Below, in pieces: positions 2,240 through 35,125 of a stretch of DNA of 64,000 bases. The stretch's first letter is position 1. Each line of letters opens with the position of its first letter. The position numbers and the translations under genes are program-made. Under the pieces are notes generated by a model. The model did not search any database, was not told the DNA's origin, and saw nothing but the letters and a program-made list of their open reading frames with translations. The DNA comes from an uncultured Gemmatimonadales bacterium (GTDB lineage: Bacteria > Gemmatimonadota > Gemmatimonadetes > Gemmatimonadales > GWC2-71-9). The stretch covers positions 98,514 through 162,513 of the forward strand of contig CAVOSV010000001.1 of assembly GCA_963698975.1 (NCBI GenBank), read 5' to 3'.

Positions 2240-2641
2240 GTGCCTCGCTTGTCGCGCCGAGCCGTTCTGGCTCTGAGTTCTATCATCGGCCTTGCGCTCT
2301 GGCTGATCCCGGCCGGCTTTCTTCACCAACCGGTTCCTTGGAACGGCAGCGGTCCCGCGTATCCTCTCACCCTCTTCGGGTGCGGGCTCGTGCTCGGTTT
2401 TCTAGCTCCCGGTCGATCGGGCGCTATTGTTGCCGGCATGTTTCTCGGCCAGCTCGCCGTTCTGCTCTGGCTGGTTGTCGCCAGTCGTGAGAACAGGGCG
2501 CTGTGGCTGGTAGAAGTCGTCATGCTAGCCGGCTACACCTTCGTGGCCACCGGGCTTGGAGCGCTCATCGGCAGCGTCCTGCGTCGCCGAATGCATCCTG
2601 ACCTTCCGGTGGAGCGCCGGGTGTCGGATCGAAGAGCGTGA
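2240..2641 (+). CDS. hypothetical membrane protein
   Basis: 133-aa ORF with a GTG start and four hydrophobic segments. No recognisable family. Confidence 0.5.
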   Translation: MPRLSRRAVLALSSIIGLALWLIPAGFLHQPVPWNGSGPAYPLTLFGCGLVLGFLAPGRSGAIVAGMFLGQLAVLLWLVVASRENRALWLVEVVMLAGYTFVATGLGALIGSVLRRRMHPDLPVERRVSDRRA

Positions 2642-3213
2642 TCATGCCGACACTAGGAGTCCGACCCGACAAATCAGGATCAATTGTGCGCCCACTCTTT
2701 GTTCTAACGGCTCTGGCCCTCACGGCCGGGCTGTTACAGGCCCAGTCCTCTCTCTCACCCGATCAGCTCGCCGACTGGCAGCGGAACCGAACTACGGTGC
2801 TGGCCTACATCGATGCCATGCCCGATTCTGCGACCGGCTTCAGGCCCACCCCGGGCGTCCGGAGCTTCGCTGAGCAGTTCGATCATATCGTGACCACAAA
2901 CCTGGAAGTTGCGGCGGTGGCGCTCAGGGGACAGAAGGCCGCACCCGCCCTCGGTGACAGCTCGGTCTATCTGCACGACAAGGCCGCACTTCGGAAATAC
3001 GCAGCGGCCACCTACGACTATTTCCTCAAGGCGCTGCAGGAGGCCAAGCCCGCACAGTTGAGCAAGCGAGTGGCGATCTACGGTCAGCCGCCTCAGCCGG
3101 CGAGTCGGCTGGCCATGCTCTCGTTCGAGCACTCAGTCTGGACGCTCGGCCAGATCGTACCTTACCTTCGGCTGAACGGAGTCACGCCTCCCGAATACCG
3201 CATGCCGTTCTGA
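2638..3213 (+). CDS. DinB family protein (secreted)
   Basis: GTGA overlap with the upstream gene and a signal-like N-terminus. FAEQFDHIV...FEHSVWTLGQIVPYLRLNG is a DinB_2-type His pattern. Confidence 0.7.
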   Translation: MIMPTLGVRPDKSGSIVRPLFVLTALALTAGLLQAQSSLSPDQLADWQRNRTTVLAYIDAMPDSATGFRPTPGVRSFAEQFDHIVTTNLEVAAVALRGQKAAPALGDSSVYLHDKAALRKYAAATYDYFLKALQEAKPAQLSKRVAIYGQPPQPASRLAMLSFEHSVWTLGQIVPYLRLNGVTPPEYRMPF

Positions 3214-3216
3214 TCG

Positions 3217-5037
3217 ATGGCAAAGATTCACATCGCGGCATCGCTCGCTCTGCTGGTTGTTCCGCCGGCTGCAATGAGTCAAAGTGCTCCGCCGGCCTAT
3301 CACTGCCGCTTTGTGCCGGTGCCGGTACGAGACGGAATTCATCTCAATACCAGTGTGTGCCAGCCAGACGGGCAGCAAGGGCCGCTGCCGTTCCTGCTCA
3401 CCCGCACGCCTTACGGCATCGAGGGTGACACCGTAGTTCCGGAGAGCTATCGGTTCTTTGCCGCCGACGGCTACATCTTCGTGTCCCAGGATATCCGCGG
3501 CAGGTACAAGAGCGAGGGACAGTTCATCATGAATCGCCCGTTGCATGATCCGGGCGATCCCAAGGGAGTCGACGAGAGCACCGACACCTACGACACGGTC
3601 GAGTGGCTTTTGGCCAATGTTCCGGGAAACAACGGGCGGGTCGGAGTCCTCGGCGTCTCCTATCCCGGTTTTCTGGCGACGATGGCCGGGATCAATCCCC
3701 ATCCAGCGGTGAGGGCCATCTCGCCTCAGGCGCCGATGACCGACACCTGGATGGGAGACGATTTCTTCCATCAGGGCGCGTTCCGGCTCTCCTACGGCTT
3801 CGAGTACGCCGGCTCGATGGAGCTGACCACTGACTCTCCGCTGTCCGGCGCGATGCCGATCGACTCCTGGGACACCTACGACTGGTACGCCCGTCTGGGC
3901 TCTCTCGCCAACGTGGATCGGATGTACTTCCACGGAAGGGTTCCCACCTGGCAGGCATTTGTGGCGCATCCGGCTTATGACCGATTCTGGCAGCAGCGGG
4001 CGGTGCAGCGGATCCTCAAGGCTCCGCTGGTCCCCACGCTGACCGTGGGCGGCTGGTGGGATCAGGAAGACCGTTACGGGCCGCTGGCTACCTATGCCGC
4101 GCTCGAGCGGGGAGACAGCAGCAGGCAGAACTTTCTGGTGATGGGTCCCTGGAATCACGGCGGTTGGCGCCGCCCGGCCAACCTCATGCGGATTGTTGAC
4201 CCGGGCACCTATGAGGCCTACCTGCGTGATGTTGAGGCTCCATGGTTCGCGCATTACTTGAAGGATCGAAAGGCAGGAGAGCAACCCGAGGCAATGCTCT
4301 ACGACGCCGGAGCTCGCCGCTGGCGCTCATACGATAGCTGGCCACCCAAGGCTCCGCCCCGAAGTCTCTATCTCCATGGCGGTGGCGCTCTCAGCTTCGA
4401 TCCACCTCGAGCCGGAGAGGCATCCTACGATCAGTACGTTTCGGATCCGGCTCACCCGGTGCCCTATCGCTCTCGGCCAGTGGAGCGCACCTATGATGCT
4501 CGGGGGAGCCGCTGGAAGTTTTGGGAAACAGAGGACCAGCGTTTTGTGGACGGCCGGCCTGATGTTGTGAAGTGGGTATCCGCGCCGCTCGAGGAAGACC
4601 TGCTGGTGGCCGGGAACATCAAAGCCAGCATCGTGGCCTCGACTACGGGACGCGATGCCGACTGGGTGGTGAAATTGATCGACGTCCTCCCCGACAGCGT
4701 TCCGGATAACTGGTCCTGGGGCGGATACGAGCTCATGGTCGCTCACGAGATCATGCGCGGCCGCTATCGCCGGAGCTTCAGCGCCCCAGAGCCGCTGGCT
4801 CCAAACACGCCGCTGGAGTTCACCGTGGATCTGCATCAGCAGAGCTACACCTTCCAGCGGGGACACCGGATCATGGTTCAGATCCAGAGCAGCTGGTTTC
4901 CGCTCTACGACCGGAACCCACAGACCTGGGTGCCCAACATCTTCAAGGCCAAGCCAGGCGACTTCCAGGCCCAAACGCATCGCATCTGGCACACGCCCAA
5001 ACTCGCTTCGCGAATAGAGCTGACCGTTCAACACTGA
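3217..5037 (+). CDS. CocE/NonD family hydrolase (S15 X-Pro dipeptidyl-peptidase-like)
   Basis: 606-aa intact ORF. LLTRTPYG, RGRYKSEG, VGVLGVSYPGF (nucleophile elbow) and a C-terminal jelly-roll (GGYELMVAHEIMRGRYR) are present. Confidence 0.85.
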   Translation: MAKIHIAASLALLVVPPAAMSQSAPPAYHCRFVPVPVRDGIHLNTSVCQPDGQQGPLPFLLTRTPYGIEGDTVVPESYRFFAADGYIFVSQDIRGRYKSEGQFIMNRPLHDPGDPKGVDESTDTYDTVEWLLANVPGNNGRVGVLGVSYPGFLATMAGINPHPAVRAISPQAPMTDTWMGDDFFHQGAFRLSYGFEYAGSMELTTDSPLSGAMPIDSWDTYDWYARLGSLANVDRMYFHGRVPTWQAFVAHPAYDRFWQQRAVQRILKAPLVPTLTVGGWWDQEDRYGPLATYAALERGDSSRQNFLVMGPWNHGGWRRPANLMRIVDPGTYEAYLRDVEAPWFAHYLKDRKAGEQPEAMLYDAGARRWRSYDSWPPKAPPRSLYLHGGGALSFDPPRAGEASYDQYVSDPAHPVPYRSRPVERTYDARGSRWKFWETEDQRFVDGRPDVVKWVSAPLEEDLLVAGNIKASIVASTTGRDADWVVKLIDVLPDSVPDNWSWGGYELMVAHEIMRGRYRRSFSAPEPLAPNTPLEFTVDLHQQSYTFQRGHRIMVQIQSSWFPLYDRNPQTWVPNIFKAKPGDFQAQTHRIWHTPKLASRIELTVQH

Positions 5038-5054
5038 TTGCCGCCAAGGAGATC

Positions 5055-5543
5055 ATGCCGGATAAGCCCCTCAATCACGGAGCCGCCCCCGCAGCCGAGC
5101 GCGAGGTCCGCGTACTGTACGATGAGGTTCTCCGCTGCTGGAACGCGCGCAATGCCGGCGAGTTCGCCCGGTGCTTCAGCCGGAACGGCAACATGGTGGG
5201 CTTCGACGGAAGTCCAGTCGATGGGCAGCAGAATATCGAGGAGCACTTGAGCGAGGTGTTTGGCAGCCATCCCACTGCGGCCTACATCGGGAAGGTCCGC
5301 GAAGTTCGTCTGCTGTCTCCCGGCGTGGTGCTCCTGCGAGCCGTTGCCGGAATGGTGCCGCCGGGCAAGTCGGAGCTGAACCCCGCCGTCAATACGATCC
5401 ACACGCTGGTCGCCGCATCCGAGGGCGACCGCTGGAGAGTGGAGCTGTTCCAGAGCACACCGGCAGCATTCCACGGGCGGCCCGCCGCGGTGGAAGCACT
5501 GACAGCCGAACTCAGGAGGGAGTTGGAGCGGCACCCGATCTAG
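5055..5543 (+). CDS. SgcJ/EcaC family (SnoaL-like/DUF4440 fold) protein
   Basis: 162-aa ORF. REVRVLYDEVLRCWNARNAGEFARCFSRNGNMVGFDG is the typical N-terminus. Confidence 0.7.
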   Translation: MPDKPLNHGAAPAAEREVRVLYDEVLRCWNARNAGEFARCFSRNGNMVGFDGSPVDGQQNIEEHLSEVFGSHPTAAYIGKVREVRLLSPGVVLLRAVAGMVPPGKSELNPAVNTIHTLVAASEGDRWRVELFQSTPAAFHGRPAAVEALTAELRRELERHPI

Positions 5544-6442
5544 CGGGTGCGGCTCCAGCGATCTCGAAGACAGCCCAGGAATGAGTCGCAGCGGGCCGGC
5601 TCGTTCGATGCTACGGCGGCGCTGTCGGCCGGGAGATCCGGCGGAAGCGCATCCAGGCGAGCGGCCATGTCCTCCGGGTCCTCGTCGGACTGATCGGACA
5701 GCTTGGCACCGGCAAGCAGAATCTCCCGGCGGAGCCGAGACGCCGTCCGCATCACGCGCACCGGATACTGCTGGCAGCGGGGCGTGTTGCGGCCGCGGAC
5801 GCATCCGTTATATCGCCGAAGGGCGGCTTCGAGCGACTTGGTCCGTCGCAAGTGCATCTGCAGCAGCCGAGCCCCGTGACAGATGTTGGCCTCCACGTTC
5901 AGGAGGTCACCCGAGAGACAGCGATAGTTTCCGACGTGCATCGGCATGACCTGCATCAAGCCGATGGCGCCCTCGCTGCTGACCGCGCTGGTATCGAACG
6001 GCGCGTTCTCGATCAGGAGCACCGCCGCAAGCACGCTCGGGCTGATGTGGGCTCGGCCGGCTTCATACACCACGGCTGAGGCTACCCGGTCCGCCAGCTC
6101 GGCGTTACGGGTGCGCCGCGCCAGAGCCGTGGCCAGGGGCCGTTCAGCCAGTCGCCTGGTCACCGCCGACTCCATGGCCGCGCTGTCCGTCGCCGTGCGG
6201 GGGCGAACCGGCGCAGACACGCGAGGCTTGGGAGTGCTCGTCTTGCGAGCGCTCGTCCTGGGAGCGCTCGGCTTGGGAGCGCTCGCTCGCGGGACAGCGG
6301 CCGGCACCCGCGCGGGCATGATCCCGGTTGTGGCCAGCGCTGCGGGTGTTCCAGGGCTTGTAGAGGCGCACGCGGACAGCAGGGTCACTGCCGCAAGTCC
6401 ATACGATTTCAGCGCCTTGCCACGACAGATAGCGGGAAACAT
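5540..6442 (-). CDS. lytic transglycosylase (SLT domain) lipoprotein with Ala/Pro/Ser/Lys-rich linker
   Basis: Lipobox LLSAC, a low-complexity SAPKPSAPRTSARKTSTPKP linker, and the SLT catalytic region SSEGAIGLMQVMP. Confidence 0.8.
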   Translation of the reverse strand: MFPAICRGKALKSYGLAAVTLLSACASTSPGTPAALATTGIMPARVPAAVPRASAPKPSAPRTSARKTSTPKPRVSAPVRPRTATDSAAMESAVTRRLAERPLATALARRTRNAELADRVASAVVYEAGRAHISPSVLAAVLLIENAPFDTSAVSSEGAIGLMQVMPMHVGNYRCLSGDLLNVEANICHGARLLQMHLRRTKSLEAALRRYNGCVRGRNTPRCQQYPVRVMRTASRLRREILLAGAKLSDQSDEDPEDMAARLDALPPDLPADSAAVASNEPARCDSFLGCLRDRWSRTR

Positions 6443-6652
6443 GGCGCTCCTCTCGAAGACGTGACGGCAGTATGGCCCGTGCCAGAGGGTCGCTCAAGTG
6501 TTAAAAAGTTGTTCGCGACGAGATTTGGGACACTCAGAATCGGTCACTCGGGGTGGCCGGCCTCGGAAGTGGTGGCGGTGCCTGCTCGATCAGATCGCAT
6601 CTGAGCTGCTGCACCGACTGGCACCCAGGGGGTTCGTTACAAAGGAGGTACA

Positions 6653-7072
6653 ATGCTGCGAAAGAGCTGGGTGCTGGCTGGGATGCTCCTGCTCGCGTGC
6701 GGAGGAGATGACGGCTTCAACCCGACGCCCGAAACCGTGGCGGGAACCTATCAACTCACAACTCTCAAGGAGACGCAGAACGGGATTACCCTGGATCATC
6801 TCGCCCTGGGAGTTACGGCGGAGCTGATCCTGGCGCCCCAAGGCACCGCCACCGGTCACCTCTTTGCTCCCCACAGTGCGGAAGATGGTAGCGACCTGGA
6901 CACCGATGTAACCGGAGGATGGAGCTTGAGCGGCACCACCGTCACCCTGAGCCTGGATCAGGACCTCTTGTTCAACGGCCTTACTCTCACCGCCGAGCCC
7001 AATCAGCTTCGGGGCAACCAGACCCTGCCGGGCAATATTGCGGTCGAGATCGTGTTCACCCGTACGCAGTAA
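6653..7072 (+). CDS. hypothetical lipoprotein
   Basis: GGAGG before the ATG. Lipobox LLLACGG. No family assigned. Confidence 0.6.
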   Translation: MLRKSWVLAGMLLLACGGDDGFNPTPETVAGTYQLTTLKETQNGITLDHLALGVTAELILAPQGTATGHLFAPHSAEDGSDLDTDVTGGWSLSGTTVTLSLDQDLLFNGLTLTAEPNQLRGNQTLPGNIAVEIVFTRTQ

Positions 7073-7083
7073 GCGGATTCCTC

Positions 7084-8032
7084 GTGCAACGATCCATTCT
7101 GGGGCTGCACCATGTGACCGCCACGGTAAACGAGGCCCAGCCCGACCTCGATTTCTACCGCAGTACTCTCGGTCTTCGGCTGGTGAAGAAGACGGTGAAC
7201 TTCGACAATCACAACGTCTACCACTTCTACTATGGAGACGAGCGGGGCGCGCCGGGAACCATCTGGACCACCTTTCCCTACGGCGGCTGGGGCGTGGCAC
7301 CTGGCCGGCACGGCGCTGGCCAGATCACCACCACCTCCTTCTCGGTACCTGCAGGATCGCTTTCGCGTTGGATGCGTCCGGTTGCAAGCCAAAGGCCTAT
7401 TGGTCCAGCAGAACAGTGCCAACGGGAGGAACGCGATCATCGTCACCGACCCCTCCGGACTTCAGGTCCGACTGATCGAGGCGGCGGACGACCCTCGAAC
7501 ACCGTGGACCGGGAACGGCCTTTCTGCAGACATGGCCATTAGAGGTCTCCATGGTGTGACGCTGACGGTAACGGCCCCGGAAGCGAGCGTGAGCTTTGCC
7601 CGGGAGTTGCTCGGCTTCGAGGTCGTAGATGAAGCAGAAGGTCTGGTGCGGCTGGCCGTGAATGGCGATCTGCCGGGCCACGCCCTGGAGCTGAGTTATG
7701 GAGACGACGCTCCTCCAGCACGCAACGGGCTGGGCACGGTGCACCACGTTGCCCTAGCCATTACCGATGAAGACGAACAGAGACGGCTGCGGCAAGAACT
7801 GATCTCTCGCGGCATTTCTGTTACCGAGGTGCTGGACCGGCAGTATTTCCGTTCGATCTACTTCCGCGAGCCCGGAGGGGTGCTCTACGAGGCAGCTACG
7901 ATCGCTCCCGGATTCACTGTGGACGAGCCGCTCGCGGGATTAGGACAGGAGCTCAAGCTTCCTCCGTGGGAGGAAAAGAATCGCGCGGAGATCGAGCGCA
8001 ATCTGCCGGTCATTGACCCAGCTCAGCGTTGA
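7084..8032 (+). pseudogene. ring-cleaving dioxygenase / VOC (glyoxalase) family, two-domain, one frameshift
   Basis: GTG at 7084 gives ILGLHHVTATVNEAQPDLDFYRSTLGLRLVKKTVNFD in frame 1. RLQAKGLLVQQ...IRGLHGVTLTV...VHHVALAI...YFRSIYFREPGGVLYE continues in frame 2. The shift is near 7378 (cgtCCgg). Confidence 0.75.
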
Positions 8033-8762
8033 TTCTGAGTACCGTCTCGTGCGCCACGCGCTGCAGCATCATTACGGTACCGGCAGGCACCGACAGGGTC
8101 TGCCCCTGCACCACCGCCTGCTCCGGAAGCCGCTGCGCGTCGTGCCCGGTGATTCCCTCATATACCACCAGTGCAGCAAGGTACGTCCCCAGCGGAGCCG
8201 GGTGAAACCCATCGGGACCGTAGAGCGGTAGCGCGGGATCCTCCGCCCAGGCGGCGCGCCAGGCTTCCCCCGCCGGGAAACAGGGCCCGTCCACGGCGCG
8301 TGCCGCGTCCAGACAGGATTGCAAGACGCCATCGAACACCGCCCGATCGGGCGCTGCGGGCCAGGCCATCAACTGTGCCGTGCGCCCTCCCCCAGCGCGC
8401 ACGTCTGGGTCGAGCAGCTTCGCGGCCAGGATCAGCGTATCACGACCTATTTGCTGACTGGTCGGCCCTTGCTGCAGCACCACGAAGTCCCAGCCGCCTC
8501 GGTGCAGCACGTCGACCGCGTCGCTCCCGCCGTACACGTGGTCGATCACGGCGAAATTGGGCCGGGTGACGGCTTCGGTCACGATGGTGTCATTCACCGA
8601 GGCGGCGAGCTGCGCCACGGTTCCGGGAAGATCATTGGAAGCGGTGAGGCTGTTGCCGATGAACAGCACGCGATAGCCGCCGCCCGGCTCGGGTGCTGCC
8701 GGAGGGTTCCCGCCAGCGCAGGCGGCAAGCAGTGACAGAGCTGTGAGGAGGCGTGAGATCAT
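8010..8762 (-). CDS. SGNH/GDSL-like hydrolase lipoprotein
   Basis: Start at MISRLLTALSLLAACAGG (lipobox). Block I variant VLFIGNSLT and a C-terminal DGFHP motif. Confidence 0.7.
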   Translation of the reverse strand: MISRLLTALSLLAACAGGNPPAAPEPGGGYRVLFIGNSLTASNDLPGTVAQLAASVNDTIVTEAVTRPNFAVIDHVYGGSDAVDVLHRGGWDFVVLQQGPTSQQIGRDTLILAAKLLDPDVRAGGGRTAQLMAWPAAPDRAVFDGVLQSCLDAARAVDGPCFPAGEAWRAAWAEDPALPLYGPDGFHPAPLGTYLAALVVYEGITGHDAQRLPEQAVVQGQTLSVPAGTVMMLQRVAHETVLRINAELGQ

Positions 8763-8985
8763 GCCGAGGTCGCGGGTGTTTCCATCGGGGACGAGAACCG
8801 GCTGCCGCAAGACACACGAAACCCGCCGCCCTCCTCACCCGTCCTCGGTGCTAGGCGAAAGGAGCAGATACCATGAGACGTTCAATCTCCGTCCCTCACG
8901 GTCCTCAGTGGGGCTTCGGCGCATCGGTCGACCGGTTGCCGTTGATCCGCTCGGCCGCGGAATACGGGCTCCTGAGGTCAGCGAA

Positions 8986-9717
8986 ATGACACCAGCTGAT
9001 CGTTCGCTCGCGTCCGCCGTGTTGATGGCGCTGGGGCTGGCGCTCGGCGGATGGTTCATCGGTCATGGGTTTGCCAGCGGACGGGCCTCAGATCGGTTCG
9101 TTGAAGTGAAGGGTTTGGCCGAGCGGGAGGTCACCGCCGATCTGGCGCTGTGGCCGTTGCGATACGTGAGCACGGGCGACGATCTCACGGCAGCCCAGGC
9201 CCAGATCACCCGCAATACCCGGCAAGTGTTTGCCTTTCTCAGCCGGAACGGGATCGATACTACCGCGGTGCAGCTCCAGGCGCTGGAGGTGTCCGACGCC
9301 TTCGCCAACCGGTTCCCGGGCGAGCGCGCCGGCCCCCGCTACGTCATCCAGCAAACCGTCATGGTGCGGTCGAGGAAACCGGACGTAGTAATGGCTGCCA
9401 GCCAGCGGGTCAGCGAGCTGGTGGGCGCCGGCGTGGTCTTGTCTTCCAGTGGAGAATACGGCATCGGCGGTCCCACCTTCATTTTCACCAGGCTCAACCA
9501 GCTCAAGCCTTCGATGGTCAAGGAAGCCACCGCCAACGCCCGGGCGGCCGCCCAACAGTTCGCCGCCGATTCCAGAAGCGGGCTGGGCAGCATTCGACAG
9601 GCCAGCCAGGGAATTTTCGTCATACTGCCCAGGGATCAAGCCCCCGGAGTCAACGAGGGAGCTCAGCTTCAGAAAATTGTCCGGGTAGTCTCGACGGTTC
9701 AGTACTTCCTGCGATGA
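8986..9717 (+). CDS. SIMPL domain-containing protein (DUF541)
   Basis: Internal ATG at 8986 with an N-terminal TM segment. EVKGLAEREVTADLALW...EATANARAAAQQFAADSRSGLG matches the SIMPL pattern. Confidence 0.8.
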   Translation: MTPADRSLASAVLMALGLALGGWFIGHGFASGRASDRFVEVKGLAEREVTADLALWPLRYVSTGDDLTAAQAQITRNTRQVFAFLSRNGIDTTAVQLQALEVSDAFANRFPGERAGPRYVIQQTVMVRSRKPDVVMAASQRVSELVGAGVVLSSSGEYGIGGPTFIFTRLNQLKPSMVKEATANARAAAQQFAADSRSGLGSIRQASQGIFVILPRDQAPGVNEGAQLQKIVRVVSTVQYFLR

Positions 9718-30164: not shown

Positions 30165-31807
30165 TGACCTGAGACTCCTGGGAGAAGCTCGCCGGTGATA
30201 TCGGTGCCGGCGACCTGTGGGGCTGGCGGCTGATAGAGCGGCTGCGGTGCAGGCTGAGTGGCTGCACCGCTCTGGACCGATGCTCCGGCCGTTTGCGACG
30301 GCACCGCGATGGGAAGCGCCGGCAGCAGGGCGATTCTCACCTTGGCCACCTGCAGATCGCGCGCGGCGCGGGCCCGCGCCGCCTGGGCCTGCTGCAGCTG
30401 GATCCGGGAATCCAGCAGCTCGGTCTGGGTCGAGATCCCCTCCCGATAGCGCAGCTCGGCGATCTTGTAGGCCCGGGCCGCCTGCTCTACGGTTCCTGCA
30501 CTCGCCTGCCATCCGGCCTCCGCCGCCTGGAGCTGGGTCATCGCATTTCTGCCGTCCACCTCCGCCAGCTCTCGCGCCTGCTCCAATCGAAGCTCCGCCT
30601 GCGTGAGGTTGGCGCGGGCGACCGCAACGTCCCCGCCGATCCGCCCGCCGGTAAAAAGGGGAACCTGCAGTCCCACCGACACCACCCAGTCGGAGACGAA
30701 GTCGGCCCCGAAGGGCGAGACATTGTTGGGATAGCCCAGCTGGAGGAACTGCGAGTTCACGGCGAGCTGGGGCAGCCGCTGACCCTTGGCCGCCCGTAGG
30801 AGTCCGCGCTGAGCCTCGACCGCCTCGTTGGCTTGCCGCACCGGCGCCCGGACGCTGGTGCTGGTGTCGCCCGGATTGGCTACCAGCTGCGAGAGCCGGG
30901 GCGAGTCCACCAGCGCGGTGTCACCCAGCTCGGTCGCGAGCGCGAGCGGCTGATCGAGCGGGAAGTCGAGCAGCTGCTTGAGCCGGTAGTGCGCCAGGTC
31001 GCGATCGGCTCGGCGCTGAATGACCACAGGGCGCTGGTTGTCACGAGTGACTCGGGCCCGCAGCAGATCGAACTCCGACTGGTTTCCCACCTGTCGCGCA
31101 AGGCGGGTCTGGCTCAGCGTTGTGTCGGCCTGTTCCAGCGTGGCCTCGGCAATCGCCAGCAGCCGGTCGGCCAACGACGCATCGTAGTAGGCGCCGGTGA
31201 CATCGAGCAGCAGCTGAGCCTGGGCTGAGGTCAGGCCCAATGCGGCGCTTCGAGCATTGGCGCTGGCCGCACGGCTCTGGCCGCTCACCTGCCCGCCGCT
31301 GAACAGGGTCTGCGAAAAGGAGAGGCCGAAGCGATAAGTGTTGGCTCGGCCGAACGGCAGGTTGCGAAAGCCGGCAAACGGATCGGCGCTGCTGGAGCAG
31401 GCGACGGCGCTCTCCAGCGAGTCCAGCCGCTGCTCGACCGGGAGCGATGGATCAGGTACGAACTCGCGGCAGATCCGGGGCGCAGCGGTGGACGTGTCGC
31501 TGCCGGTCTCGAGTGCCGAGAATTGGCTCTCCAGGGTACGGAGATAGGCGGCAGTCCCGTTCACCTGGGGGAAGTAGCCGCTCTTGGCCCGCTTCCGGTC
31601 ACCCTCCGCCCGGGCCAGCTCCTCCCGGGCAATGCCAACGGTCTCGCTGTTTCGCTCGGCGATCTCCAGCGCCTGGGCCAGGGTGAGCGTCCGAGCCTGG
31701 CTGAGTGTGGGCTGCTGTGCTGCGAGCGAACCGGGAATGGTGCCGGCGGTCAGGGCCGCCGCCAGAAGCAGGCCTGAGGGCCTGCGCTGCAAATGAAATG
31801 ATCTCAT
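30161..31807 (-). CDS. TolC family outer-membrane efflux protein
   Basis: 548 aa with a signal peptide and two OEP repeats. The C-terminal tail is Pro/Gln-rich. ATGA overlap with the TetR stop. Confidence 0.85.
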   Translation of the reverse strand: MRSFHLQRRPSGLLLAAALTAGTIPGSLAAQQPTLSQARTLTLAQALEIAERNSETVGIAREELARAEGDRKRAKSGYFPQVNGTAAYLRTLESQFSALETGSDTSTAAPRICREFVPDPSLPVEQRLDSLESAVACSSSADPFAGFRNLPFGRANTYRFGLSFSQTLFSGGQVSGQSRAASANARSAALGLTSAQAQLLLDVTGAYYDASLADRLLAIAEATLEQADTTLSQTRLARQVGNQSEFDLLRARVTRDNQRPVVIQRRADRDLAHYRLKQLLDFPLDQPLALATELGDTALVDSPRLSQLVANPGDTSTSVRAPVRQANEAVEAQRGLLRAAKGQRLPQLAVNSQFLQLGYPNNVSPFGADFVSDWVVSVGLQVPLFTGGRIGGDVAVARANLTQAELRLEQARELAEVDGRNAMTQLQAAEAGWQASAGTVEQAARAYKIAELRYREGISTQTELLDSRIQLQQAQAARARAARDLQVAKVRIALLPALPIAVPSQTAGASVQSGAATQPAPQPLYQPPAPQVAGTDITGELLPGVSGQ

Positions 31808-32389
31808 CGGGACCTGCGCACGCCCACACCAATGGCGCGCAAAAAGAGTCGAATGTACTCGTCGAGGGCTTCATCGGGATCGTTGCGATAGATGTCCCGC
31901 ATGATCTCGCGCCCCATCGCATCGGCGAAGAGCGCTCCCATCAACATGGCGGAAGCGGCAATCTCATTGAACGGAGCCTTTGCCAGCCCAACCTCTCGCA
32001 GCCGGCGCAGATACCGGCTGAGCGCCCGCACTGCCAGAGCCGTTGGACTGTTTTCACTGGAAAAGATCCCGGGGTGCTCCGCGATCTCGCCCATGCAGGT
32101 GCGAATCAAAGCCCGGCGATCTGCGCAATTCTGTGATGTGAGTCCGGGCCCATTCGCGGAGCTCGCGGGCCGGATCGCGGGGATGCTCGGGCAGGAGCTC
32201 AGGCAGATCGCTGGTGCCGGCCCGCACGATCGCTTCGCGGATCAGCGCGTCCTTGGATCCGAAATGGCGGAACAGGGTGATCTCGTTCACCCCGGCCGCG
32301 GTGGCGATCCGGCGGGTGGTGGCGCCCCGGTAGCCTGATTCGGCGTAAATCCGGGCGGCGGCGTGGAGCAGCTGGTCGCGAACCGACAT
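31804..32389 (-). pseudogene. TetR/AcrR family transcriptional regulator, one frameshift
   Basis: The HTH LLHAAARIYAESGYRGATTRRIATAAGVNEITLFRHFGSKDAL is in ORF 32054..32554 (start 32389). The C-terminal ligand domain is in ORF 31804..32109. The shift is near 32120. Confidence 0.8.
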
Positions 32390-32421
32390 GGCGGCCAGTA
32401 TAGTGCAAGCTCTGTCTGCAA

Positions 32422-32437
32422 GCAAGTGGCCACTTAC
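32422..32437. promoter_or_regulatory. candidate TetR operator (near-perfect 16-bp palindrome GCAAGTGGCCACTTAC)
   Basis: The core AAGTGGCCACTT (32424-32435) is a perfect 12-bp palindrome. It lies 35 nt upstream of the tetR start in the divergent region. TGCAAGC occurs twice just before it. Confidence 0.4.
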
Positions 32438-32446
32438 AATTACACC

Positions 32447-32475
32447 TTGCGTGGACTGCACCCCCTGGTTAGCAT
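32447..32475 (+). promoter_or_regulatory. possible sigma-70-type promoter for the riboswitch-led transcript
   Basis: TTGCGT, a 17-nt spacer, then TAGCAT, ending ~25 nt before the aptamer. The match to consensus is weak. Confidence 0.3.
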
Positions 32476-32499
32476 TTTTGCGTCGCTCCGAGAGGGGCG

Positions 32500-32590
32500 A
32501 TGCCGAAAAAGGCAAACCCGTCGTGAGGCGGGGACGCAAAGCCAGGAGTCCCAAGCAGTTGTCGTCGGGATCGTCCGGTTGCCGAAGCGC
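32500..32590 (+). promoter_or_regulatory. c-di-GMP-I (GEMM-I) riboswitch aptamer
   Basis: GAAAAAGGCAAACC-CGUC-GUGA-GGCG-GGGACGCAAAGCC...CCGGUUGCC reproduces the conserved GGCAAACC, GNRA-capped P1b hairpin, GGACGCAAAGCC and closing GGUUGCC blocks of the Vc2-type aptamer. It sits ~160 nt upstream of the OM barrel gene at 32749. Confidence 0.7.
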
Positions 32591-32748
32591 GAGCCTCCAG
32601 CTCTACCCTTCGGCCTATTCCATCCGGGATAGGCGTTCCTGTTTCCGACACCCTGCTCGACCGAGATCGCAGTCGCCGCCCCGTGGCGCTGCGTTGACGA
32701 TCGACCTCGACGCGCAGGGGACATCCACACTCTACGTCGGAGACATAC

Positions 32749-33437
32749 ATGCGCCGCAGTCTCATGGTTCCGCTCGCCCTGCTTGCGATCGTGAAGTCGC
32801 CTGCAGCGGCCCAGACCTGTCAGGGTATGGCCTCGTTTTCTGCCGGCCAGCTCCAGGTCGCCGGTAACGCCCAGTTCCCCGATGGCGGCAAGGTCTGGGG
32901 CGGCAGCCTGACCTATGGTCTGCCCTCCGGCCTCTACGCTGGTGCCGACCTGTCCAACACCTCTGCTCGACAACGATGGTGGCAGCTCGCTGGGTCTCGG
33001 CGCGCACGCCGGTTACCAGATGAAGCTGGGCCGCACCCAGAAGGTGGCGCTCTGCCCGGTGGCCAACCTGTCTCTCGGCATGGGCCCGGATGACAAGCAG
33101 GCTGATATCAACTCGTCTCAGACTAACGCGAACTTCGGTTTCGCGCTGGGCACCGAGATGGGCGCCAGCCAGCAGATGCGGATCATCCCGACCGCCGGTC
33201 TGGGACTGCAGTACAGCAAGTTCAAGGTCGACCAGGCCGGCGCCACGGTGCTGCGAGGCTTCTGAGACCTACGGCCTGGCCCGTCTCGGCGTCGGCTTCG
33301 TGTTCAACCAGCAGATCTCGGTTCGCCCGACCGTTGACATCCCGGTGGGCTCGGATCTGCAGAACGATCCGACCTTCGGCGTGTCCGTGGGCTATAACTT
33401 CGGCAGCAAGGGCGTCAGCAAGAGCCGCCGCCACTAG
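32749..33437 (+). pseudogene. small outer-membrane beta-barrel protein, paralog 1, two frameshifts
   Basis: Signal peptide plus AAQTCQGMASFSAGQLQVAG in ORF 32749..33093. The middle part is in ORF 32915..33265. The C-terminus ETYGLARLGVGFVFNQQISVRPTVDIPV...VGYNF is in ORF 33090..33437. It is collinear with paralog 2. Shifts are near 32960 and 33258. Confidence 0.65.
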
Positions 33438-33462
33438 TCTCCGCGGTAGCAAGTGTGGTACG

Positions 33463-33497
33463 AACGGGAGCGGCCCAGCCGCTCCCGTTTCGTTTTT
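33463..33497 (+). terminator. intrinsic terminator
   Basis: Perfect 12-bp stem AACGGGAGCGGC / GCCGCTCCCGTT with a 3-nt loop, followed by TCGTTTTT. Confidence 0.7.
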
Positions 33498-33572
33498 GGC
33501 TTCCGCCCGTGTCGATGGTCTGTGTCTTGCTTTAAAAGCCGCAGTCCCCCCTGACACCCTCACGGCACCACC

Positions 33573-34385
33573 ATGCGACGCATGCTCCGACGCATTCTCC
33601 CAGTTTGTCTTGCTCTCGTCCTCACCGCCGCGCCGGCGGTCCGGGCCCAGAGCTGCCAGGGCCTGCCTTCGTTCTCCACCAGTCCACTCCAGGTGACGGG
33701 CGAGGCGTCGCTCACCTGGCATTCGGACGCGCTTGGCGCCGGGCTCAGCTACGGATTTCCTCGGGGGCCTTTCGGCCAGATGAGCGTGGTCAGCCGGACT
33801 CACGAAAACTTCGGCGGATCGTCGGTCGACGTGGGCGGTGCCGCAGGATACGAGATCCCGCTGGGCGCCGAGTCGCGGGTCCACCTCTGCCCGGTGCTGG
33901 CAGGAGCCCTGGAGCTGGGTCCCAACAACGCATTCAACTCGGACGTGAAGCGGCTGCGCCAGTCGGCGCACCTCGGCCTGACGGTGAGCACCGAGCTCAG
34001 GCCGATGCAGCGCTGGAACGTGATTCCGACGTTCGGCCTGGCCTATGCCTACCAGAATGACGAGGCCCAGGACCACGCCGGTACCGTCCTGTTCAAGATC
34101 GCCGATTACTACACGCTGGCCCAATTCGGGGTCGGTCTGGTCTATCAGTCCACGCTGTCACTTCGGCCCTACGTGGATCTCCCGCTCTGGCTTTCCGGCG
34201 GCGAGCCGACGGTCGGGTTGGTGGTGGGGTATGGGCTCGGGAAGGGAGCTGGGAGCTCAGGAACTGGGAGTCGTCCCGGACTCCCCTCGTCCCGACCCCG
34301 CAACTCCCACTTCACCACGCGATCTGCAGAACTCCGCCTTCCGAGATTTCGCCTCGAAGTCAGTCGCCTTCCCATTGCTCCATAA
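33573..34385 (+). CDS. small outer-membrane beta-barrel protein, paralog 2 (3' end doubtful)
   Basis: Signal peptide plus AQSCQGLPSFSTSPLQVTG. Alternating beta-strand pattern runs to ...VGLVVGYGLGKG. The last ~45 codons are Ser/Pro/Arg-rich and read through a hairpin at 34266-34285. Confidence 0.6.
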   Translation: MRRMLRRILPVCLALVLTAAPAVRAQSCQGLPSFSTSPLQVTGEASLTWHSDALGAGLSYGFPRGPFGQMSVVSRTHENFGGSSVDVGGAAGYEIPLGAESRVHLCPVLAGALELGPNNAFNSDVKRLRQSAHLGLTVSTELRPMQRWNVIPTFGLAYAYQNDEAQDHAGTVLFKIADYYTLAQFGVGLVYQSTLSLRPYVDLPLWLSGGEPTVGLVVGYGLGKGAGSSGTGSRPGLPSSRPRNSHFTTRSAELRLPRFRLEVSRLPIAP

Positions 34386-34487
34386 CACCTTAGCGCAACG
34401 AATCGATTGGTCTGCAACTTGCCCTCACCCTCGCGCGGCCACGCGAATGCGGGCGCCGAGTTCCTCGGCACATTTTCTCCAAACAAC

Positions 34488-35046
34488 ATGAGAGGCGACA
34501 TGGGTACACTCCGGGCTACTGGATTCTGCGCGCTCCTCACGGCTGTGCTGGCCACCTCGGCCTTCGCCCAGCAGGCGCAGACGCGGCAAGGGCTGTGGGT
34601 CGGCGGCGGCATGGGCTACGGCTCGCTGGGCCTGACCTGCGATGGCTGTAGCGGCGTCGATCGTGAGGGTGGAGTCAGCGGGTACGCCAAGGTCGGCGGC
34701 ACCCTGCGGCAGAACATCCTCCTGGGCGTCGAGATGAACGGCTGGACCAAGAGCGAGTTCGGCGGTCGGGTGACGATGGGCAACATGTCGGGTGCGGCTT
34801 ACTGGTATCCGATGCCGACCCAGGGCCTCTTCATCAAGGCCGGCGCCGGCTACTCGGTGCTCTCGGTGGACGATGGGATCAGCACCGCCGACGATTCCGG
34901 CTTCGGGCTGCTCGGCGGCCTGGGTTACGACGTCCGGGTGGGCAAGAACCTGTCGATCACTCCGGTCGCGAACTACTTCCGCGGCGCGTTCGATGGGCGG
35001 CTCCGCCAACGTGCTGCAGCTCGGCGTGGGCGTAACCTCGCACTAA
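34488..35046 (+). pseudogene. outer-membrane beta-barrel domain protein (third barrel gene), one frameshift near the 3' end
   Basis: MRGDMGTLRATGFCALLTAVLATSAFAQQ signal, then GLWVGGGMGYGSLG...GLGYDVRVGKNLSITPVANYFRGAFDG. SANVLQLGVGVTSH-stop follows in the frame of ORF 34792..35046. The shift is near 34995. Confidence 0.65.
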
Positions 35047-35125
35047 GCACGATCACAGTCGAAGGCCGGCCCTGACGGGGGCCGGTAACAGCGCCAGCGG
35101 GGGGATCACAGGAAGACCTGGTCCT

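Follow-up and report, generated by a model that had tools for sequence, protein, structure and literature searches.

The tetR–barrel locus

The 64-kb window analyzed here (the whole stretch of 64,000 nucleotides from an uncultured Gemmatimonadales bacterium) holds a gene cluster whose order is kept in related loci: an RND pump, a membrane-fusion protein, an outer-membrane factor, tetR and, divergently, barrel genes 1, 2 and 3 (sometimes with a fourth) and OsmC. The tetR gene (PF00440), which starts at 32389 on the minus strand, is separated by 359 nt from the ATG of barrel gene 1 (32749, plus strand), and a putative c-di-GMP-I aptamer sits in this gap, in the divergent position between tetR and the first small outer-membrane barrel gene where a sequence-only reading of the same DNA had placed it. 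The aptamer is found at the same position in all 21 loci that cover the tetR–barrel gap (8/8 from metagenomes and 13/13 from genomes), and the genome matches all come from Gemmatimonadales or Gemmatimonadota MAGs. The features of the region are collected in Table 1.

Table 1. Features of the tetR–barrel region, in window coordinates; paired strands are separated by a slash.
Feature	Position	Strand	Basis or remark
Perfect 12-bp palindrome AAGTGGCCACTT (candidate TetR operator), between tetR and riboswitch promoter	32424..32435		Read from sequence
Candidate sigma-70-type promoter, TTGCGT / 17-nt spacer / TAGCAT	32447..32475	+	Read from sequence, conserved in relatives
5' hairpin GCGUCGCUCC-GAGA-GGGGCGAUGC, directly adjoining aptamer	32480..32503	+	10 pairs
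Probable c-di-GMP-I aptamer	32502..32587	+	Rfam match 69.9 bits, E 1.7e-14, full model
P1	32504-05/32583-84	+	Rfam structure
P2, GUGA loop	32512-13/32536-37 and 32517-22/32527-32	+	Rfam structure
P3	32540-52/32567-80	+	Rfam structure
Ligand-contact equivalents	G32511 (G20), A32538 (A47), C32582 (C92)	+	Rfam alignment, Vc2 numbering
Putative equivalent of interhelical pair C44-G83	C32535 (in GGGACGC) / G32573 (second base of P3 bulge)	+	Read from sequence
Alternative hairpin, GCCGAAG (32581-87; P1 3' strand and C92) / CUUCGGC (32608-14)	32581..32614	+	Unconstrained minimum-energy fold
Terminator-like hairpin GCCUAUUCC-AUCC-GGGAUAGGC, U-poor tail GUUCCUGUUU	32613..32634	+	Consensus scan; weak candidate
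Pyrimidine-rich switching segment GCGUUCCUGUUUCCGAC	32633..32649	+	Constrained vs free folding
Three-way-junction domain, 71 nt, between switching segment and Shine-Dalgarno	32651..32721	+	Folding
Shine-Dalgarno region GUCGGAGAC (32736-44) and gene 1 start codon (32749-51)	32736..32751	+	Sequence; invariant in 21 leaders
Barrel gene 1 (regulated gene)	32749..33437	+	ORF list, tblastn; paralogue of gene 2
Intrinsic terminator after gene 1, 13-bp stem then T-run CGTTTTTGG	33462 to about 33490-33500	+	Consensus scan, sequence
Sigma-54-like -24/-12 element (GG-N10-GC) TGGTCTGTGTCTTGCT, upstream of barrel gene 2	33516-33531		
Sigma-54-like -24/-12 element (GG-N10-GC) TGGTCTGCAACTTGCC, upstream of barrel gene 3	34408-34423		

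The family of barrel gene 1 matches PF13505 (470 protein matches), and the gene 1 orthologues are intact PF13505 proteins of 228-233 aa. The gene 2 family is small (26 clusters) and has no Pfam match; its AlphaFold model (pLDDT 79) shows a signal helix and about 10 strands, and the structural matches of this model are all outer-membrane barrels, with low TM-scores of 0.35-0.53 and no close solved relative among them. The modeling supports the view that the products are small outer-membrane barrels. The sequence-only reading had called them porin-like, a label that we drop: the predicted barrels are roughly 10-stranded and lack a close solved relative. In the window, tetR, barrel 1 and barrel 3 are each split across frames (31804-35075; single-base insertions near 32119, 32966, 33254 and 34995, as compared with L013); gene 1 is read in three frames, with two single-base insertions near 32966 and 33254. 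Intact orthologues are found on other contigs (TetR, 194 aa; barrels, 232, 228 and 191 aa), and assembly errors seem likelier than pseudogenes as the source of the splits. The upstream pump genes likewise look fused or frameshifted.

On the tetR side of the gap, the block that surrounds the palindrome, GCAAGCAAGTGG..ACTT, shows little or no variation in 8 loci, and we infer from its sequence a candidate TetR operator; if it is one, the barrel gene would be under both TetR and c-di-GMP control. Repeated TGCAAG motifs are present in 32400-32440, between tetR and the promoter, and are kept in relatives. The candidate promoter is too weak for a strict sigma-70 consensus scan, which found no promoter here; a transcript initiated from it would start near 32480. 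The 5' leader of gene 1 is roughly 270 nt long, aptamer included.

Class and probable ligand of the aptamer

At gathering thresholds, Rfam cmscan finds a single match in the 64-kb window, at 32502-32587 (+): the RNA covers positions 1-80 of the 80-position RF03167 model and scores 69.9 bits (E = 1.7e-14), above the gathering score of 59. The match is far beyond chance, and its model belongs to the same clan as RF01051, the family that the sequence-only reading had proposed for a check. Overlapping members of a clan are suppressed in the Rfam scan, and another family of the same clan (CL00126) also scores above its own gathering score at 32502-32587, hidden by clan competition; RF01051 has a gathering score of 35 bits. 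When 32300-32800 is scanned permissively with Rfam, no second known motif emerges, the other matches being at chance level (E above 3). A motif scan of the 64-kb window for GGDEF proteins found none, an uninformative result.

The class I blocks quoted in the sequence-only reading are all present (GGCAAACC at 32511-32518, GACGCAAAGCC at 32533-32543 and CCGGUUGCC at 32575-32583), together with its hairpin capped by a GNRA-type loop, CCCGUC-GUGA-GGCGGG at 32517-32532. In class I aptamers, G20, A47 and C92 contact c-di-GMP (PMC4744006, PMC5888326) and the interhelical C44-G83 pair is universally conserved (PMC4744006); the equivalents of the three contact bases, along with C32535 and G32573, are unchanged across 30 copies. 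In an alignment of 25 copies, the P1/P2/P3 structure of 22 pairs has 98.2% of cells paired, three P3 pairs show compensatory (two-sided) changes, and the observed covariation score is reached by 0 of 500 shuffles. The full-model match, the canonical contact bases and the presence in relatives uphold the class I claim: by its sequence, 32502-32587 (+) is very probably a genuine canonical class I c-di-GMP (GEMM-I) aptamer.

The RNA shares the common two-hairpin aptamer, the G20/A47/C92 contact bases and the bases of the C44-G83 pair with members of RF01051 (c-di-GMP-I), such as V. cholerae Vc2 and Vc1 and B. thuringiensis Bc1 (PMC4744006, PMC5888326), and resembles them further in its GNRA-family P2 loop and its location upstream of a membrane or envelope gene, within the 5' leader (PMC11218506). 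Unlike these RNAs, it has a GUGA (GYRA) loop and no 11-nt receptor; its P1 consists of only 2-3 pairs and is flanked by a conserved 5' hairpin; its stems are almost invariant; its 161-nt leader carries an extra three-way junction; control is probably exerted at the ribosome-binding site, not at a classical terminator; and it comes from an uncultured Gemmatimonadales host.

The P2 loop is GUGA in the window and GUGA, GAGA or GCGA in the relatives, and P3, as judged from the sequence, has no visible 11-nt receptor of the CCUAAG/UAUGG type. GYRA loops without a tetraloop receptor characterize the "type 2" form of class I (PMC11218506), and by its loop the window aptamer is probably of this receptor-less form. 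The missing receptor does not refute the class I call, because GUGA is a GYRA loop of the type 2 form; a tetraloop–receptor arrangement, to which the sequence-only reading had tied the assignment, is thus the wrong yardstick for this RNA.

Two alternative ligands have to be weighed. RF03167, the c-di-GMP-I-GGC variant, is the top-scoring family for the window RNA and for all 29 related copies (63-72 bits, gathering score 59), and membership in it could imply an altered pocket that recognizes a ligand other than c-di-GMP. The variant was reportedly defined by Weinberg et al. in PNAS 2017; the meaning of "GGC" used here is deduced from the RF03167 model consensus, which has in its junction a G at model position 10, a G at position 37 and a C at the second unpaired base before the P1 3' strand. 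The sole core mismatch of the window RNA to this consensus is at position 37 (A instead of the consensus G); GACGCAAAGCC, and hence an A at the diagnostic position, is present in 30/30 related copies. Nor does the RF03167 or RF01051 label depend on the diagnostic base in other sequences: some of the true G-bearing sequences fetched from metagenomes by a pattern search (those in L027 and L031-L033) are labeled RF01051 by Rfam, and five A-bearing aptamers in L028 are labeled RF03167. L028 is an unrelated metagenome contig of 60% GC, with six clan matches within about 6.5 kb (2523-9021), on both strands. The likeness of the window RNA to RF03167 extends to the short P1, the AAAGGCAAACC and UGCCGAAG flanks, the overall length and the best-scoring covariance model, but the defining G is absent and the true G-bearing metagenome examples differ in their P2 and P3 sequences. 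With A32538 at the A47 equivalent, we reject membership in the GGC variant and consider an altered pocket very improbable. The plain class I call of the sequence-only reading, which goes against the top Rfam family and agrees with the diagnostic base, is preferred to the RF03167 label because of this canonical A. Clan competition can give canonical aptamers the name of the "GGC" variant, and the diagnostic base should be checked before another ligand is inferred. Recognition of 3',3'-cGAMP, as by the GEMM-Ib subclass, is likewise very improbable: GEMM-Ib has the common fold, but the ligand adenine pairs with an A at the G20 equivalent (A14 in Geobacter Gs1761; PMC5888326), and the base at this position is G in every related copy (G32511 in the window).

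The leader of gene 1 and its predicted switch

In 11/11 comparisons, conservation of the 161-nt leader exceeds that of the genes on either side (whole-leader identity 0.84-0.98 vs 0.68-0.93 and 0.72-0.91 for the genes). The 5' hairpin that adjoins the aptamer has 100% of its cells paired in 21 leaders, with one-sided variation at four pairs and two-sided variation at two; it is specific to the plus strand because of its G-U pairs, and paralogue copies have a different stem, GCCGCUC/GAGCGGC, at this site. On the 3' side, the alternative hairpin, which is incompatible with P1 or ligand binding, encloses a small GAGC/GCUC hairpin (32591-32603); its pairs are invariant (7/7) in 21 leaders and variation is confined to the enclosed loop. 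The 9 pairs of the terminator-like hairpin at 32613-34 are also 100% paired, with three that vary on one side only, and the tail that follows degrades to GUUCUCGUAU in relatives. By its sequence, the switching segment could pair with either the aptamer strand 32520-32537 or the Shine-Dalgarno region, being complementary to each.

The three-way-junction domain folds with a minimum free energy of -36.5 kcal/mol (z -2.96) and adopts one consensus fold in 13 distinct sequences, among which 0 compensatory pairs are found; it has no Rfam match. It hardly varies among leaders with gene identities of only 68-93% and occurs once per locus, only in the gene-1-type leader. A search with a model of the junction yields no independent copies, only the expected leaders and a decayed remnant in L019 (3342-3510, gene-2 leader; 27.5 bits). 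In this remnant, the 5' hairpin is kept with only ~22 nt from the start of the aptamer, joined directly to an anti-SD-like segment and a degenerate form of the three-way junction. This decayed riboswitch appears to be a natural internal deletion.

The alternative pairings suggest a relay in which the state of the aptamer would be passed to the ribosome-binding site. When c-di-GMP is absent, two alternative helices would open the aptamer, one between the P1 3' strand (32581-87) and 32608-14, the other between the pyrimidine segment 32633-49 and 32520-37, which comprises the P2 3' strand and the junction. The Shine-Dalgarno would then stay free and gene 1 would be translated. Binding of c-di-GMP would lock the aptamer and free the segment UGUUUCCGAC (32640-49), which could then pair with GUCGGAGACA (32736-45) across the three-way junction and hide the ribosome-binding site, turning the gene OFF. 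We hold the account as a whole (a canonical aptamer, control limited to gene 1 and a translational OFF relay) to be likely. On the folding models, an OFF response of gene 1 to c-di-GMP is somewhat favored, and the chances that the controlled step is translation are about even.

The predicted folds agree with such a relay. In the free fold (-126.7 kcal/mol), 32633-49 is engaged with 32520-37 and the Shine-Dalgarno stays open; once the aptamer is enforced (-117.4 kcal/mol), 32640-49 joins 32736-45 instead. Judging from Vc2 affinities, the gap of 9.3 kcal/mol is within reach of tight c-di-GMP binding. With the aptamer locked, the predicted unpaired probability of the Shine-Dalgarno drops in 7/7 gene-1-type leaders (from 0.30 to 0.10 in the window); in the gene-2- and gene-3-type leaders of distant genomes, the predicted accessibility is unchanged. 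A local CUCU/GGAG hairpin over the Shine-Dalgarno in the free fold was dismissed, as it is not conserved. The helix between the aptamer strand and the segment (17 pairs) is 99.2% paired in 21 leaders, with four variable columns that show only C<->U changes opposite an invariant G, and the helix between the segment and the Shine-Dalgarno is 93% paired in the aligned leaders. In 15/16 leaders of three types, no other site makes a better duplex with the aptamer strand than the homologous segment does, at modest single-leader duplex z-scores (-0.2 to -2.9). In a paralogous leader (L017, 3341), the Shine-Dalgarno changes from GUCGGAGAC to AUCCGAGAC and its partner from GUUUCCGAC to GUCUCGGCG, and pairing is kept; an A in three relatives breaks one pair in both alternative helices. 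Because the relay helices are almost invariant, with essentially no compensatory covariation within gene-1-type leaders, the covariation support consists of one-sided changes and this one paralogue comparison.

The same aptamer could act on transcription instead, a reading to which we give a clearly smaller chance than to translational control. Upon binding of c-di-GMP, P1 would form and release CUUCGGC, so that hairpin 32613-34 could form all of its 9 bp and, together with the U-containing tail, terminate transcription; without the ligand, the two alternative helices would remove the two basal pairs of this hairpin and sequester the tail. A consensus scan flags the hairpin and tail as terminator-like, the hairpin is maintained through one-sided changes and overlaps the alternative helix by 2 nt, and termination is the usual point of action of class I c-di-GMP switches (PMC11218506). 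However, the tail (GUUCCUGUUUCC) is a poor one that has decayed to GUUCUCGUAUCC in relatives, whereas a bona fide terminator of the same locus, after gene 1, has a clear T-run; the hairpin is present in both predicted states; and ~110 nt of highly conserved leader lie downstream of it. Transcriptional control predicts the same OFF direction as the translational relay, and this agreement between two readings of the conserved alternative pairings weighs against an ON switch, in which c-di-GMP would raise barrel gene expression. ON and OFF class I switches are both known (pairs cited in the reference list of PMC11218506), and folding predictions, which rest here on free energies, are unreliable for GC-rich RNA; even so, we regard an ON response as unlikely.

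Among characterized switches, the translational OFF relay favored here can be compared with Bc1, in which the structured expression platform after the class I aptamer is likewise unusually long and the ribosome-binding site is trapped in the ligand-bound state, a state only predicted for the window RNA (PMC11218506). Bc1 differs in its two canonical terminators and in its GAAA loop, which has a receptor; the window RNA has one weak terminator-like hairpin and the three-way junction. This domain is located inside the predicted anti-SD:SD clamp and might be a second sensor, of a small molecule or a protein, which would make the leader a composite regulator. We consider this improbable; if true, barrel gene expression would integrate c-di-GMP with a second signal, and the invariant stems would reflect a second recognition surface, beyond alternative pairing alone.

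Reach of the riboswitch in the barrel family

The window riboswitch can act on barrel gene 1 only, because a strong terminator follows gene 1 and genes 2 and 3 have sigma-54-like promoters of their own. Both GG-N10-GC elements are kept at identical positions in nearly all related loci, and neither gene 2 nor gene 3 has an aptamer in the window. In the more distant genomes (L017-L023), 2-3 aptamers are found per locus, one ahead of each barrel paralogue (e.g., at 1368, 2464 and 4180 in L018 and at 2206, 3303 and 4920 in L020); the extra aptamers lie ~40-46 nt downstream of the GG-N10-GC motif and have a shorter expression platform, different from that of the window leader. The sequence-only reading had proposed that the barrel family as a whole is under second-messenger control; this would hold for the distant Gemmatimonadales, in which each paralogue has its own aptamer, and is too broad for the window, in which the switch can reach only a single gene. 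The aptamers of genes 2 and 3 are absent from the window lineage, where they were either lost or never present. The gene-3 leader of the window retains, at 34440-34496 and without an aptamer, a hairpin GCCGAGTTCCTCGGC, a U-rich tail and AGAGGCGACATG, a part that matches the gene-3-type riboswitch leader of distant genomes over its 3' half.

The riboswitch class has long been known, and a standard Rfam scan suffices to detect the element; what is unusual is the conservation of its long leader. Of some interest are a variant label that misleads, riboswitch arrays with one aptamer per paralogue and their apparent loss in the window lineage, the sigma-54-like promoters and the invariant three-way junction. 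To our knowledge, there is almost no experimental genetics in the Gemmatimonadales, a soil phylum. The three-part relay proposed for the ultra-conserved leader is a testable model of translational control, and the locus would add an envelope-protein target for c-di-GMP in this group, where a whole family of small barrel proteins appears to have per-gene riboswitches, of which the window lineage keeps only that of gene 1.
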